A stretch of 64,000 nt of DNA from Pseudomonas phage BRkr. Position 1 is the first letter of the stretch. Each line of letters opens with the position of its first letter. Positions 21,337 to 33,783 of this stretch are shown here, in pieces. Location: sequence record LC765218.1; one strand, written 5' to 3'. A model generated the notes under the pieces. The model was not told the DNA's origin, made no database searches, and saw only the letters and a program-made list of their open reading frames with translations. The position numbers and the translations under genes are program-made.

Positions 21337-21900
21337 TCATTGTATTTGGATTGAAGTCTCATAACCGCCAGACGTCTTGTACGACCTGAATCTTTTTGGA
21401 ACTGGTATATCGTAACGACGGCACCATTTTCTAACAGCGTTATCTGATACGCCGTATTTCTTCCCAATTTTAGTTAATGGTAAAATATGTAGATCGGCAA
21501 TGAGCTGATCTTTATCGGGTCGCTCCACTTTACGATTACCTTTACCCGTGCATTCAAGGCTACAATAATATTCTTGCTCTGTACTAAGTACAGAACCACA
21601 ACATCTACAAAGTTTAGTGGGGTACTTAGTTGGATCTATACCCATCCTCCGCATCCATGCATGTAATTTAACATGCATTGCATCGGGAAGGATTAGTAGA
21701 TTTTCTGGGTGATTATTGGACCTGTTCTCATCCAAGTGATGTACAACTTCATCGTCATATAAAGGACGACCCAATACTTCCTCGGCTACGACTCGATGTT
21801 CATAAACCCACCCCCACATATTCTTATTCTTCTTAGCTTCTGGGTGATCCGGCCTATAAAGCAAAATATATCCGTTCAGTTCTCTCGAACGCTCTTCCAT
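21337..21900 (-). CDS. HNH homing endonuclease, 187 aa.
   Basis: HNH motif VVHHLDENRSNNHPENLLILPDAMHVKLH. A Cys-rich zinc-binding region. A C-terminal helix-turn-helix-like basic tail. About 60% identical to 29604..30161. Confidence 0.8.
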   Translation of the reverse strand: MEERSRELNGYILLYRPDHPEAKKNKNMWGWVYEHRVVAEEVLGRPLYDDEVVHHLDENRSNNHPENLLILPDAMHVKLHAWMRRMGIDPTKYPTKLCRCCGSVLSTEQEYYCSLECTGKGNRKVERPDKDQLIADLHILPLTKIGKKYGVSDNAVRKWCRRYDIPVPKRFRSYKTSGGYETSIQIQ

Positions 21901-21975
21901 AATTCATTGCTCCAGGTTCAATCAATTATACAGCATATTGCAACTGGACCCAACCAGTTGCAATACATTAGAGAC

Positions 21976-22053
21976 TGGTGCCGTCAGAGGGATTCGAACC
22001 CGATCGACCTACTGATTACAAGTCAGTTGCTCTACCTGCTGAGCTATAACGGC
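21976..22053 (-). tRNA. tRNA-Thr with anticodon TGT, 78 nt. It carries a 2-nt bulge in the 5' strand of the T-stem and may be degenerate.
   Basis: The reverse complement gives acceptor GCCGTTA/TGACGGC, D-arm TAGCTCAGCAGGTAGAGC, anticodon loop CTTGTAA, T-loop TTCGAAT and an ACCA end. The T-stem reads GA-TC-GGG against CCCTC. Confidence 0.6.
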
Positions 22054-22119
22054 GAAATTTGAATTGAGTACTGGAATCTACATCACTGAATACTCTCGTA
22101 TACTATTAGACACGAAGTA

Positions 22120-23700
22120 TTATTTTATTTCGTATTCGACTACGGGTGTTGTTTTAGATACATCACCACCAAATCGATAGACTCCATCGGATACAACTAA
22201 CATCTCTTCATACGAAGAAATAGCTGGGAAGGTATCTCCGATTAGTTCTGGCTCTTTATTAAGTTGCACCAAAGCTAATCGTGTTCCGGAGTTATTCGTC
22301 ACATAGATGTTATTACCGAATATGATTCCTCTATACGTCGAATATTTGTTGGCAGGCGCATTCAAAGGAATGACTTCAGTTGTACTAAAATCAGAACTAA
22401 TCTTTACGTAGTCCGTTGGCGAGATGTTTGTCCCACCTATTGTTAATCTACCTTGAGATGCAACGATAACTAATTCACCATTATCGTTAAATCCTAAATT
22501 ATGATGCCATAATTCAATTGGTAGAACATCAGCAATCATGCCGATTTCATATGTCGTAAGGTTAACTGTTATAATGTTCTTATGGATTTTATCACTGCGT
22601 CCAGAGAAACCACCAACAATGTACAGTATATCGTCTTTAACTATACTAGCTGTACGTTCGATGTAATATGCATCGACTAAACCTGGAATAGCAGCTAGCT
22701 TTTTAGTTTCCCATGTGTCGGTAGCTATCGTGTAAATATAAATAGTCGGACCAGTAGACAATGGGTTACCATGCAAAATCAACTTACCATTATTGTAAAC
22801 CATATTGGTTGTAGTTGTCTCGCCTTGGAACGGAACTGTAGATGGTAACTTGGTCCATGTTTTAGTATCTCGGTCTAACCGATGTAAGTCGGACATGAAC
22901 GTAGTAGGTCCTGTTGTATATCCACAGGCCATGTAAATATCGTTGTTATCCGAATCATACGCGAGTACTGGCATCCCACGTTGCGGCGGTGGATTTACAG
23001 TCGACAATACAGAGGTAATACCTTTAAGTTCCTTTGGCGGAATATATTCAAGTACCGGTCGCCATCCACGATAACTAGTAGCTTCTGTTGGCGGATGACC
23101 ATCGTAAATATAAAGGCCATTCTTTGCCTGAGGATGAGTTGTCGATGGTGAAAACTGTAGGTAATTACCATTGGTATTTCTATTAGCCGCCCAGTTATAA
23201 CTTCCGTTTCCGGCGCCTATAAGTTGTTCATCTGTGTACTTTGCCCAACTTCCTTTAGTTGTAACATTGCCAAAAATATCCCACAATTCAGAACCTTCAT
23301 TACCTTGAGTAGCGATATCCGAATAAGGATTTACTCCAGCATTCATTAGACGAACTTTAAACATGTTCCCATCGATTACAATAACTTTACTACCATCTAT
23401 TAAACCAGCCTCGTCAAGTTGGTTTGGACTAATGGAATGGAGAATAGCTGTCTTCGAATAATAAAGAATAACATTATTTCTAGATACTTTAATCCAACCA
23501 GCATCTGTATTTATAGTACCAATGGAGTCAAGCTCAACAAGTGTTCTTAACTGAGGGTAAGTTATAAACTTGTCGCTTGTCAACTCACCATACAGACCAA
23601 GTGTCGAATCACCTTGTTCAAAGGTAGATGGACCCGGTAGTTTATTTCCTGTAGCCTTAATGAGTGCAGACAATAATGATTCGAACATAATTTTATCCAT
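22120..23700 (-). CDS. Kelch-repeat beta-propeller protein, 526 aa. It has an N-terminal fibre-like module (MFESLLS…GDSTLGLYGE…GWRPVLEYI) followed by Kelch blades.
   Basis: Repeated blade motifs of the form hhYhhGG. N-terminal 35 aa and a GWRPVLE motif are shared with the 216-aa protein at 43297..43947. The MFExLLS N-terminus is shared with all Kelch paralogs. Confidence 0.75.
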   Translation of the reverse strand: MDKIMFESLLSALIKATGNKLPGPSTFEQGDSTLGLYGELTSDKFITYPQLRTLVELDSIGTINTDAGWIKVSRNNVILYYSKTAILHSISPNQLDEAGLIDGSKVIVIDGNMFKVRLMNAGVNPYSDIATQGNEGSELWDIFGNVTTKGSWAKYTDEQLIGAGNGSYNWAANRNTNGNYLQFSPSTTHPQAKNGLYIYDGHPPTEATSYRGWRPVLEYIPPKELKGITSVLSTVNPPPQRGMPVLAYDSDNNDIYMACGYTTGPTTFMSDLHRLDRDTKTWTKLPSTVPFQGETTTTNMVYNNGKLILHGNPLSTGPTIYIYTIATDTWETKKLAAIPGLVDAYYIERTASIVKDDILYIVGGFSGRSDKIHKNIITVNLTTYEIGMIADVLPIELWHHNLGFNDNGELVIVASQGRLTIGGTNISPTDYVKISSDFSTTEVIPLNAPANKYSTYRGIIFGNNIYVTNNSGTRLALVQLNKEPELIGDTFPAISSYEEMLVVSDGVYRFGGDVSKTTPVVEYEIK

Positions 23701-23852
23701 TGAAAAGTGACTGTTTACAGAGGGGTGGCTGTATAGAACTTCACGTTCCTACTCCCTTTCCGTCTAAGGCCTCCCCATTATAGGTACTTACCAAAAGACT
23801 AAATCATACAATTTGCAACATAAAGCCCGCCTTTCGGCAGGCCTTATTAAAA

Positions 23853-23938
23853 TGGTAGGAGCAGAGGGACTCGAACCCACAGTGCCTTACGACGGCTGGA
23901 CCTAAACCAGCTGGCTATACCAATTCGCCTATGCTCCC
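23853..23938 (-). tRNA. tRNA-Leu with anticodon TAG, 86 nt, type II with a long variable arm.
   Basis: Acceptor GGGAGCA/TGCTCCT, anticodon stem-loop GCTGG-TTTAGGT-CCAGC, T-loop TTCGAGT with one T-T mismatch in the T-stem, and an ACCA end. Confidence 0.7.
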
Positions 23939-32592: not shown

Positions 32593-32647
32593 GTTTATTA
32601 TCCCGATGCAATATAATACCCTCCATAACGGAGGGCTTATATTTAAA

Positions 32648-32723
32648 TGGTCGGAGTGGAGAGACTCGAACTCCCGACATCCTGCTCCCAAAGCAGGCGC
32701 GCTACCAACTGCGCTACACTCCG
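32648..32723 (-). tRNA. tRNA-Pro with anticodon TGG, 76 nt.
   Basis: Acceptor CGGAGTG/CACTCCG, D-arm GCGC-AGTTGGTA-GCGC, anticodon stem-loop CCTGC-TTTGGGA-GCAGG, T-arm GGGAG-TTCGAGT-CTCTC, and an ACCA end. Confidence 0.8.
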
Positions 32724-32729
32724 TAAATT

Positions 32730-32815
32730 TGGTACCCGGTGTCGGACTCGAACCGACACGGCTTTCGCCGAGAGATTTTAAGTCTCTTGTGTACTACCAA
32801 TTTCACCAACCGGGC
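32730..32815 (-). tRNA. tRNA-Leu with anticodon TAA, 86 nt, type II.
   Basis: Acceptor GCCCGGT/ACCGGGT, anticodon stem-loop AGAGA-CTTAAAA-TCTCT, variable arm CGGCGAAAGCCGTG, T-arm GTCGG-TTCGAGT-CCGAC, and an ACCA end. Confidence 0.8.
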
Positions 32816-33054
32816 ATTTCTTCTCTATAAATAGAGGCTCCTCAGTATTATTCAACATAAAGCCTCCCAGTGGGAGGCGATATGCTCATCAACACAACAA
32901 GGAGAAAGATACAACTTACCAACTGAAAGGAGGGGATCACAACAGGGAGTCTTACTTCCTAGAAGCCAGCTGGAAGGGTTGCTGGCTCCGGCGCGCTGTG
33001 ATCCTAGTAAAGATGAGGAGTGACATCTCTACATATCATTACATAGCTGGTAAG

Positions 33055-33783
33055 TTATTCTTCTTCGCTAACGAAAGCAATACGCTCTTCGATATTTTCC
33101 AGAGTTATTACTTCATCGAAGTTCTCAGTAGAAACACTTGTGAAATTATGTTCTTTATCAATTTGCGCTAGTCCAATCTGCATCACTTTGCGAGCGTCTG
33201 GGCTAAGTCCATCAATACCTGCTGCTTCAATAGCAGCTTTATATCCAGTGAGGGTAGTAAGAGAAGACATGTTCTTTTCCTCTTTTTTGTTTCTTACATG
33301 AATGAAGATTATAGGTCCTTCAGATTTATACATTTCAAAACCTGGAGTTAGGATAATCTCATTATTAATATTTTTAGCTACATAACCACCACGGATAACC
33401 TTGCTGATATAACTGTTCAAACCAGCACCGCCATCAGCGAAGTATTTCATGTCCTGTAGTTGTATTTCAGTGATACTTTTTAGTGTATAAAGATAAAACA
33501 CCTCTCCACCGAATTCTACAAGCATCCAATCAGGACCATATTTGTAACTCTTTACATTAGATCTTCCGGAGCGATTGTAGTAAGTCCACATATCGTCCGT
33601 ATTATTAATAAGCTCAGTTATGGTTGGTGGTTGGATAACGTTATCTGTATCTGGTTCTACCCATACATCGTAAGGACGATCCGCGCGTGGATTGTTAACT
33701 TCATCAAACAACTGATTGATGAGGTCATCCATTTCCGCTTCGAGTGATATCGCGTATCGCAGCAAAAGGTTAATGTTAGGCAT
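33055..33783 (-). CDS. Hypothetical protein, 242 aa. Start reset to MPNINLLLRY.
   Basis: AAAGGTAACAATC-ATG ribosome-binding site. The track's upstream extension overlaps the hairpin at 33810-33839. Confidence 0.55.
   Translation of the reverse strand: MPNINLLLRYAISLEAEMDDLINQLFDEVNNPRADRPYDVWVEPDTDNVIQPPTITELINNTDDMWTYYNRSGRSNVKSYKYGPDWMLVEFGGEVFYLYTLKSITEIQLQDMKYFADGGAGLNSYISKVIRGGYVAKNINNEIILTPGFEMYKSEGPIIFIHVRNKKEEKNMSSLTTLTGYKAAIEAAGIDGLSPDARKVMQIGLAQIDKEHNFTSVSTENFDEVITLENIEERIAFVSEEE

Follow-up and report, generated by a model that had tools for sequence, protein, structure and literature searches.

Kelch propeller genes interleaved with tRNA genes in a Pawinskivirus jumbo phage: a probable set of interchangeable host-adsorption modules

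Kelch genes within a tRNA array

A stretch of 64,000 nucleotides (nt) from Pseudomonas phage BRkr (sequence record LC765218.1), termed the window throughout, carries on its minus strand four intact genes for Kelch-repeat proteins, interleaved with an array of tRNA genes and with two HNH endonuclease genes. By megablast, the region 21000-33500 is 97% identical to the Pseudomonas phages phiLBG22 and PA1C and 86% identical, in patches, to phiKZ, and the phage belongs to the phiKZ-like jumbo phages of the genus Pawinskivirus (BRkr/PA1C type). The Kelch open reading frames (ORFs) are named here by their length in amino acids (aa; K335, K615, K312, and K526), the two HNH_3 genes are termed HNHa and HNHb, and g216 denotes a 216-aa protein encoded elsewhere in the window. 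Kelch genes, their neighbors, and tRNAs were mapped in seven relatives (PA1C, phiLBG22, phiHQ, HHBS36_1, PS119XW, HPP-Temi, and phiKZ), with breakpoints located by BLAST; PS119XW and HPP-Temi are likewise classified in Pawinskivirus, as phiKZ-like jumbo phages of about 302 kb. We detected tRNAs by two independent methods (ARAGORN and Rfam) and domains by Pfam and PHROG profiles, with cut-offs of 24.8 bits for HNH_3, 25.3 bits for Kelch_6, and 45 bits for NANM (PF24996).

In minus-strand order, with coordinates descending, the island opens with tRNA-Leu(UAA) and tRNA-Pro(UGG) (32648-32815), the upstream end of the tRNA scaffold, followed by three small genes (homologues of phiKZ gp300, gp299.1, and gp299), tRNA-Met(CAU) (31603-31679), and a strong terminator hairpin (31593-31556). 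K335 (30471-31478) comes next, and after it the 5′ fragment of a tRNA-Asn, an 87-nt tRNA with the anticodon GUU, HNHb, the tRNA-Asn 3′ fragment, and a terminator. A 218-aa ORF (28821-29477), which accompanies K615 in HPP-Temi and had no match in Pfam and PHROG searches, then leads to K615 (26905-28752), tRNA-Tyr(GUA) (26772-26860) with its terminator hairpin (26759-26740), a 187-aa ORF, a few small ORFs, and a further terminator. The remainder comprises K312 (23997-24935), tRNA-Leu(UAG) (23853-23938) followed by a hairpin and TTTATG, K526 (22120-23688), tRNA-Thr(UGU) (21976-22053; 66 nt 3′ of the K526 stop codon), and HNHa; all of these features lie on the minus strand. The seven tRNAs of the island scored 46-73 bits in Rfam. 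A first-pass annotation, made from the letters of this DNA, had given the same coordinates for the ORFs, tRNAs, and HNH genes, and had described each intact Kelch gene as directly followed by a tRNA and tRNA-Met as lying 5′ of the 335-aa gene; the ORF list and both tRNA detectors bear this out. The distance from stop codon to downstream tRNA is 44-96 nt for all four Kelch genes. A tRNA follows directly in 5 of about 14-16 island genes, and those five include 4/4 Kelch genes (P about 0.003-0.005, a hypergeometric estimate made post hoc).

Four architectures stand behind a common N-terminal heptapeptide (hereafter, the tag), as judged by Pfam, PHROG, and alignments. In K312, the tag (MFEALLG) runs directly into blade 1 of a canonical six-bladed Kelch propeller (Kelch_1, E 3e-46, 155 bits). 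In K615, the tag (MFELLLS) is followed by two propellers, one like that of phiKZ gp298 (residues 1-310) and one canonical (residues 320-615; Kelch_6, 115 bits). K335 comprises the tag MFELLLS and a divergent six-bladed propeller and is the ortholog of phiKZ gp298 (91% aa identity; E 1.6e-203 to phrog_19623); residues 1-306 of K615 also match phrog_19623 (E 8e-12), and the N-terminal half of K615 aligns as a homologue of K335 across about 310 aa (28% identity). K312 and K526 fall outside this gp298 family (PHROG 19623). In K526, the tag (MFESLLS) runs into an unrelated domain of about 220 aa that ends in GWRPVLE and is of the phrog_1062 type (pattern PGP..GD..G.YGE...SEW...GWRPVLE), ahead of a divergent Kelch propeller that scores 33.3 bits with Kelch_6 and passes the Kelch_4 cut-off as well. 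The coordinates first given for the 526-aa ORF (22120-23700) stand, and its start is moved: translation most likely begins at 23688, as annotated in relatives, which yields a protein of 522 aa beginning MFESLLS. This protein is 100% identical to BRkr RVBP21_2490, and further exact protein matches were obtained to the BRkr locus tags RVBP21_2410 and RVBP21_2420.

The prediction of Kelch propellers is supported for all four proteins. Pfam Kelch models match K312, K615, and K526, and K335, which falls just below the Pfam threshold (24.6 vs. 25.3 bits), is six-bladed according to AlphaFold and Foldseek; of the four, only K335 was modeled. Its best AlphaFold2 model (predicted template modeling score, pTM, 0.74; predicted local distance difference test, pLDDT, 66) is all-beta with about 24 strands, and its top 50 Foldseek matches in the PDB are all Kelch propellers, including KLHDC10, KLHDC3, LZTR1, and YjhT/NanM (TM 0.6-0.69, E down to 3e-11). 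Homologue searches were very sparse: K335 retrieved 2 clusters by word search and 5 representatives among 1.84 billion by HMMER, which makes the gp298 family a tiny one, and K526 retrieved 1. The structure models therefore stand on shallow alignments, and confidence in the K335 fold is moderate because its alignment holds 4 sequences. An IMG/VR scan for gp298 relatives returned one phiKZ-like contig and PhiPA3, and nothing else.

The heptapeptide, the leader, and the Kelch-tRNA spacers

The tag, M-[FI]-E-x-L-L-[STG], is conserved at the protein level across phage genera and occurs on two unrelated distal domains. Over all reading frames of the window, 7 of 702 M-starts fit M[FILM]E.[LIMQ]L[STGAF], where 0.085 would be expected; the matches comprise the four Kelch genes of the island, a fifth Kelch gene, g216, and a 49-aa ORF. 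Its codons differ between phages, with ATG TTT GAA TTA TTG TTA TCA in the window and ATG TTC GAG ATA TTA CTC AGT for the MFEILLS of PA1C and phiHQ, including a switch of the serine codon from TCA to AGT, and the tag is held by selection at the protein level. In other genomes it is found in EL gp155 (MIEALLF) and gp153 (MLESQLF), in PhiPA3 gp080, gp081, gp083, and gp360, and in phiKZ gp083 and gp298. EL gp155 follows the annotated tail fiber gene gp156, and distant homologues of the GWRPVLE domain have Pfam Mtd_N where the tag would sit. The domain of K526 and g216 is in this respect like the Mtd-type receptor-binding proteins of Bordetella phage BPP-1, although the window proteins themselves have no Mtd_N.

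In the AlphaFold2 model of K335, residues 1-12 are unstructured (pLDDT below 50), and residues 1-13 of g216 are likewise modeled with low confidence or as unstructured. The conserved N-terminal anchor domain that had been proposed is thus reduced, in alignments and models, to about 7 residues common to all and a disordered stretch after them: the heptapeptide is present in all four Kelch proteins, and the loosely conserved 30-40-aa region said to follow it is not common to all. Given the divergence of the codons, the recurrence across genera, the two domain types, the Mtd_N position, and the EL gp155/gp156 neighborhood, the most economical reading is that the tag is an N-terminal attachment peptide carried by exchangeable distal modules. 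By this reading, attachment would be to the tail.

Tag-bearing genes also occur outside the tRNA island. The fifth Kelch gene (35518-36465, plus strand; tag MFELLLS) lies between nrdB and nrdA and has 1-nt indels at 35639 and 36150, each in a homopolymer run and each causing a frameshift; these could be real decay or sequencing errors. The nrdB-nrdA site measures only about 130 base pairs (bp) in PA1C, PS119XW, phiHQ, and phiLBG22, and an intact allele is found only in HHBS36_1 (315 aa, 87% nt identity). The proposed arsenal of five propeller genes thus amounts to four intact ones and a fifth that is frameshifted and lies beyond the region to which the set had been assigned. The g216 gene (43297-43947, minus strand; tag MIEILLS) encodes the GWRPVLE domain alone and lies between the terminase gene and the phiKZ gp26 homologue, a site that spans only 140 bp in phiKZ. 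Its AlphaFold2 model (pTM 0.70) had no significant fold match in the PDB, and no fold could be assigned to the GWRPVLE domain. On the minus strand at 17979-20226, two proteins of 386 and 326 aa both contain a phrog_1062 (GWRPVLE-type) domain, and their N-terminal regions show a weak, sub-threshold resemblance to fn3. The 49-aa ORF (20077-20226), which starts MFEALLT and whose stop overlaps the start codon of the 326-aa gene by ATGA, may be a detached tag or part of a split gene. Positions 18356-20332 have no counterpart in the seven relatives; in place of the region 17979-20332, a gene of 294 aa of a different kind is found in relatives, and a Kelch-like gene of 344 aa in HPP-Temi.

Two of the Kelch genes share a leader that extends into the first seven codons. 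The copy at K615 (28732-28791, minus strand) comprises a TATG late-promoter motif, the 5′ untranslated region (UTR), and the tag codons, and the second copy (31458-31520, minus strand) belongs to K335. The core of the repeat is 46 nt long and 91% identical (28732-28777 and 31458-31503), with the consensus GGTTATCYTATGA-(15-17 nt)-TTGAGAGCAYACTC-ATG, in which the spacing varies by 1-2 nt among copies. The TATG, about 33 nt before the ATG, corresponds to the phiKZ late-promoter consensus, of which the G is the start site (PMC4666361). The same leader is present 5′ of the alternative alleles of the K615 slot, of phiKZ gp298, and of gp360 in PhiPA3, a phage of another genus, and we regard it as a predicted conserved late-promoter/5′ UTR element. 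The near identity of the two copies had been taken to imply recent duplication; the likeness is confirmed, and the duplication is less compelling because such an element is conserved at phiKZ gp298 and PhiPA3 gp360 as well.

A second repeated element follows the Kelch stop codons. After K312 it reads AAATACTGGTATAGTGATTATATGTAAGA (23964-23995, minus strand), with a TATG promoter-like motif 5′ of tRNA-Leu, and after K615 (26875-26906, minus strand) it forms an inverted repeat of 9 bp whose loop contains TATG; the two are copies of a 32-nt repeat, 88% identical. Every Kelch-tRNA spacer contains TATGTA(A/G) 20-45 nt 5′ of the tRNA, and at the window tRNA-Tyr and the HPP-Temi tRNA-Asn this motif sits in the loop of an inverted repeat. 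ATATGTAR is not enriched window-wide (8 occurrences vs. 6.6 expected), and it is notable only in its position 5′ of tRNAs. Transcription start sites associated with tRNAs have been reported for phiKZ (PMC8244752). Hairpin terminators follow the tRNAs, and in PhiPA3 a terminator separates gp360 from tRNA-Thr.

These elements bear on whether the Kelch genes are coupled to their tRNAs. In a coupled arrangement, each Kelch gene and its downstream tRNA would form one transcription unit, in which the tRNA sets or stabilizes the 3′ end of the mRNA through RNase P/Z, or meets a demand of the Asn/Thr/Tyr-rich Kelch mRNAs late in infection. Such coupling would fit the shortness of the spacers, a scan in which no strong terminator appeared between Kelch stops and tRNAs (hairpins following the tRNAs instead), the nominally non-random adjacency, and the location of the PhiPA3 homologue, also within a tRNA cluster. 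It would fit, too, the composition of the Kelch proteins, which are richer in Asn (×1.5), Thr (×1.4), and Tyr (×1.3) than the other genes of the window, these being the amino acids of three of the four tRNAs 3′ of Kelch genes. However, Leu is under-represented in the same proteins and tRNAs act in trans; the enrichment fits phage tRNAs that serve late structural genes, yet needs no linkage. Co-transcription is further contradicted by the promoter-like motif in every spacer, twice in a hairpin loop, together with the phiKZ tRNA start sites, by the tRNAs of HPP-Temi that remain without K312 and K526, by the PhiPA3 terminator, and by phiKZ gp297, which stands between gp298 and the tRNA. We therefore consider it distinctly unlikely that the genes are wired to the tRNAs in the sense of co-transcription, as had been suggested. 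The spacer motifs, the phiKZ start sites, and the terminators argue instead for a predicted layout of alternating independent units, [late promoter-Kelch] and then [promoter-tRNA-terminator], in which the link to the tRNAs is probably positional.

Several side observations concern these intergenic elements. GC-rich hairpins of the form GCYCTCCC-loop-GGGAGRGC followed by TTTATG are found at 26740-26759, 24968-24987, 32862-32878, 33815-33834, and 36475-36495, and at 26736 the ATG after such a hairpin is the start codon of the next gene; these may be combined terminator/late-promoter elements. Relative to the window, phiKZ gp297 and its flanks (phiKZ 269775-270644) form an insertion positioned no more than a few bases from the gp298 stop codon. 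The phiKZ non-coding RNA 3'UTR_PHIKZ298 (270595-270485) was considered as a shared element and rejected, being inside this phiKZ-specific insert and having no counterpart in the window.

Cassette variation and HNH genes at disrupted tRNA genes

Across the relatives, the tRNA scaffold is conserved and the Kelch content is variable. PA1C, phiLBG22, and phiHQ carry four Kelch genes each, as does the window; HHBS36_1 has three and the nrd-located one, PS119XW three, HPP-Temi one (K615 only), and phiKZ one (gp298). K312 is absent from HPP-Temi and phiKZ, and HPP-Temi, which has neither K312 nor K526, keeps tRNA-Leu(UAG), which stands there alone as an island of 99% identity. All Pawinskivirus genomes compared encode a protein of 615-631 aa in the slot before tRNA-Tyr, and this slot is hypervariable: the alleles of PA1C, phiLBG22, phiHQ, and PS119XW are only 22-30% identical to K615, and those of HPP-Temi and HHBS36_1 are 99.5-100% identical to it. 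K615 is also 98-100% identical in DNA to the latter two, whereas the flanks are only 73-95% identical, and this excess of identity in the allele over its flanks argues for recent lateral exchange. In K526, divergence from HHBS36_1 is greater in the distal (C-terminal) half than in the proximal one. Presence/absence and allele replacement of this kind among related jumbo phage genomes are typical of host-range cassettes.

The borders of these replacements are sharp. Between the window and PA1C, phiLBG22, and phiHQ, DNA homology ends at 26906, in the K615 stop codon, and returns at 28732-28791, from codon 7 through the leader. Five phages, with three different alleles, have an unchanged block of stop codon, spacer, tRNA-Tyr, and terminator. 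HHBS36_1 and PS119XW are without a 2.7-kb segment (28792-31457; K335, the split tRNA, the GUU tRNA, HNHb, and the 218-aa ORF), and where the window has two copies of the leader they have a single chimeric one of 60 nt, which indicates recombination between direct repeats.

In PhiPA3, an island with a similar order was observed, comprising tRNA-Asn, tRNA-Tyr, a possible Kelch fragment, and two proteins with N-termini like those of the 326-aa and 386-aa proteins (the last two by eye), followed by the double-propeller gene gp360 with the same leader, a terminator, tRNA-Thr, and tRNA-Ser. If this layout is confirmed, these gene families would have been associated with the tRNA cluster before the genera diverged.

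HNHa (21337-21900, minus strand; HNH_3, 42.1 bits) and HNHb (29604-30161, minus strand; 41.2 bits), the latter an ortholog of phiKZ gp296, are paralogs with 60% identity, and both lie at the site of a destroyed tRNA gene. Window positions 21338-21973 stand in place of a 135-bp tRNA-Asp segment of phiHQ. HNHa occurs only in the window and phiLBG22, and tRNA-Asp is found at that site in phiHQ, PA1C, PS119XW, and HHBS36_1; since HNHa sits exactly at the tRNA-Asp site, the window phage and phiLBG22 have lost this tRNA. At the second site, a tRNA-Asn gene is split into a 5′ fragment (30341-30374, minus strand; tRNA positions 1-34) and a 3′ fragment (29558-29592, minus strand; variable loop, T arm, acceptor, and CCA, with a terminator hairpin downstream), both of which match the intact tRNA-Asn of phiKZ (t03) and HPP-Temi. 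The insert of about 750 bp carries the 87-nt GUU tRNA (30243-30329, minus strand; long variable arm, discriminator G73, Rfam 54 bits), then a hairpin, then HNHb. About 7 nt of the anticodon loop/stem are gone, ACTG microhomology is present at both junctions, and the same element is found in phiKZ (t02 and gp296). The insert looks like a homing cassette that destroyed tRNA-Asn and brought a type II-like substitute GUU tRNA with it. A group I intron was ruled out, as Rfam detects no intron at its gathering threshold, about 7 nt of the tRNA are missing, and the insert has its own tRNA and terminator.

Both genes combine an HNH catalytic domain with presence/absence polymorphism among close relatives, as is characteristic of free-standing homing endonucleases, and a further HNH gene lies between tRNA-Thr and tRNA-Leu in HPP-Temi. 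A free-standing homing endonuclease within a phage tRNA cluster has a parallel in T4 SegB, which drives preferential inheritance of its region (PMC2330249; also PMC13096335). The T4 enzyme is of the GIY-YIG type, whereas those of the window, known from their genes, are HNH; here, moreover, tRNA genes are destroyed or replaced, one copy brings a substitute GUU tRNA, and the cargo would be virion specificity proteins. The hyperplastic regions of T4-type phages, with their promoter/stem-loop "PeSL" cassettes, are alike in that short repeated regulatory elements flank accessory genes and serve as recombination points.

It could be argued that the tRNA cluster is merely an insertion-tolerant, non-essential region, in which the alternation of Kelch genes and tRNAs is a historical accident, with no part played by repeats or HNH genes. 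Other accessory genes do share the region, and the tag occurs elsewhere in the window on a Kelch gene and a GWRPVLE gene that have no tRNA beside them. The precision of the breakpoints, at the repeated leader/tag and at stop codons, makes such an accident very unlikely, as do the match of the deletion endpoints to the 60-nt direct repeats, the coincidence of both HNH genes with a destroyed tRNA gene, and the similar synteny in PhiPA3, where one locus was looked at.

Adsorption and host range

Direct evidence for an adsorption role comes from the ortholog of K335. In a transposon-mutagenesis preprint, phiKZ orf298 tolerated 28 insertions on PAO1, and the orf298::Tn phage formed no plaques on, and did not adsorb to, the wild isolates PA1032 and Env201, its adsorption to PAO1 being retained (PMC12676376). 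The same work describes gp298 as a low-abundance virion protein with a Kelch/NanM-like domain (PMC12676376; bioRxiv 10.1101/2025.11.23.690004). K335 shares with gp298 its leader and its tag in addition to the sequence identity given above; in phiKZ, however, gp298 is a single copy followed by gp297, whereas the window has four intact tag-bearing Kelch genes and a broken one, with three further architectures. For these other paralogs, the evidence for adsorption is indirect.

The Kelch genes of relatives are annotated as virion structural proteins, and Kelch proteins in the virions of EL, CBB, and other giant phages have been noted earlier. Among the Kelch-like virion proteins of Chimalliviridae, phiKZ gp083, EL gp153 and gp155, and PhiPA3 gp080-083 and gp360 share the heptapeptide and the virion annotation; phiKZ gp083 and EL gp155 have the K526 architecture (tag, GWRPV domain, Kelch), and PhiPA3 gp360 has the two propellers of K615. 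The genes in phiKZ, EL, and PhiPA3 are mostly single or near structural genes, whereas in the window they alternate with tRNAs, and their copy number differs among close relatives. The tag-bearing Kelch protein gp083 is 87% identical between phiKZ and PhiPA3, which seems high across genera and might point to lateral transfer.

A different interpretation of the same proteins is that they are NanM-like enzymes (sugar mutarotases or epimerases) or virion proteins, internal or ejected, that act on the host, with the heptapeptide acting as a packaging or propeptide signal. NanM/YjhT (PDB 2uvk), a sialic-acid mutarotase with a six-bladed Kelch fold, resembles the K335 model in fold (Foldseek TM about 0.6), and with the Pfam NANM model K312 (68 bits) and K615 (63 bits) pass the cut-off, K335 reaches 19 bits, and K526 is not matched. 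Generic Kelch models nevertheless outscore NANM two- to threefold over the same residues of K312 and K615, and the likeness may be accounted for by generic Kelch repeats; the window proteins also differ from NanM in having no signal peptide. The phiKZ head protease cleaves at S/A/G-x-E, and a G-x-E at residues 11-13 of K335 and phiKZ gp298 fits this motif, although it is not at that position in K312, K526, and K615. The RefSeq label "structural head protein" for phiKZ gp083 points the same way, but such notes are unreliable, since the tail sheath carries the same one. Adsorption, in which the gp298 mutant is defective, needs an exposed protein, and allele replacement with a divergent distal half is typical of surface-exposed specificity proteins; an enzymatic or internal role is therefore rather unlikely.

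We conclude that the Kelch set probably represents interchangeable host-adsorption modules in an accessory host-range region of a Pawinskivirus jumbo phage. The backbone would be a conserved array of tRNA transcription units, each with a TATG promoter-like motif, a tRNA, and a hairpin terminator, and into its spacers late virion-protein genes would have been inserted, each with the same leader and the heptapeptide M-F-E-x-L-L-S. Through the free, flexible heptapeptide, each protein would plug into a docking site common to all of them, probably in the tail or baseplate of the virion. One or two six-bladed Kelch propellers form the body, with the GWRPVLE domain of about 220 aa ahead of the propeller in K526, and this body would bind a surface structure specific to certain P. 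aeruginosa strains or open the way to it. Cassettes may be exchanged in co-infection by homologous recombination at the short conserved regulatory and tag sequences, aided by double-strand breaks from the free-standing HNH endonucleases, which themselves would have landed in or replaced tRNA genes. In a modular set whose breakpoints fall at the stop codon and codon 7, and whose spacers can take up insertions, the Kelch-tRNA adjacency would reflect where cassettes can insert and be exchanged and not a functional coupling.

Several points weigh against this conclusion. The adsorption phenotype is for one ortholog, phiKZ gp298, and comes from a preprint. Seven residues are very short for a candidate anchor. 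As to the putative tail location, PDB searches with K335, K615, K526, and g216 retrieved either generic Kelch proteins or no match at all, none of the solved phiKZ components in the PDB corresponds to any of these four, and the RefSeq notes place phiKZ gp083 in the head, with the reservation made above. The K335 model was built on a four-sequence alignment, and one of five models folded. At the 3′ side, the breakpoints are inseparable from plain conservation of the tRNA. Finally, HNHa and HNHb are predicted homing endonucleases, whose cleavage sites and part in Kelch cassette exchange we infer.

The receptor-binding interpretation advanced in the first-pass annotation is upheld in its main lines by the tag, the variable distal parts, and the virion and adsorption data on gp298; attachment to the tail is its conjectural part, and with the 2025 preprint on gp298 the receptor-binding part is no longer new. 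Compared with tail fiber or tailspike receptor-binding proteins, the Kelch proteins have the hypervariable, horizontally exchanged distal part; the paralogs share no folded N-terminal anchor, no shaft-like or coiled region was seen in them, and the genes lie in the tRNA/nrd region and not with baseplate or tail genes. CBA120 (TSP1-4), G7C, and Klebsiella phage PhiK64-1 have multiple receptor-binding proteins, trimeric tailspikes or fibers with a folded N-terminal anchor. The window resembles them in having several specificity proteins with a shared N-terminal element and divergent, horizontally exchanged distal parts, and differs in that the shared element is a 7-residue peptide and the proteins are beta-propellers that appear to be monomeric and lack both a shaft and a depolymerase fold. 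As to whether the organization had been described, earlier publications cover Kelch virion proteins (EL, PhiPA3, phiKZ, and CBB) and what gp298 does, and the multi-copy, tRNA-interleaved layout and the tag are the parts that still appear new: in the literature searched, we found no description of a variable multi-copy Kelch set, of a cross-genus tag on different distal domains, of exact cassette borders, or of a tRNA scaffold damaged by HNH insertions.

A broader extension can be put forward tentatively, as a possibility that we regard as doubtful: MFELLLS may be a universal Chimalliviridae docking peptide for changing distal modules, and the tRNA array a dedicated host-range island of adsorption modules and counter-defense or codon-supply tRNAs, which tRNA-targeting HNH endonucleases, one with a replacement GUU tRNA of its own, would shuffle among jumbo phages in co-infection.

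Jumbo phages of the phiKZ type are candidate therapeutic agents against P. aeruginosa, and what determines their host range is poorly known; the part of gp298 in adsorption was recognized only in late 2025. The association of HNH genes with destroyed tRNAs offers a testable route for the spread of cassettes, and the tag is a concrete handle for finding the docking site on the virion. If the paralogs are alternative adsorption modules with a common attachment tag and defined cassette borders, host range could be predicted from the Kelch repertoire of a phage and re-engineered by swapping the ORF from codon 8 to the stop codon.

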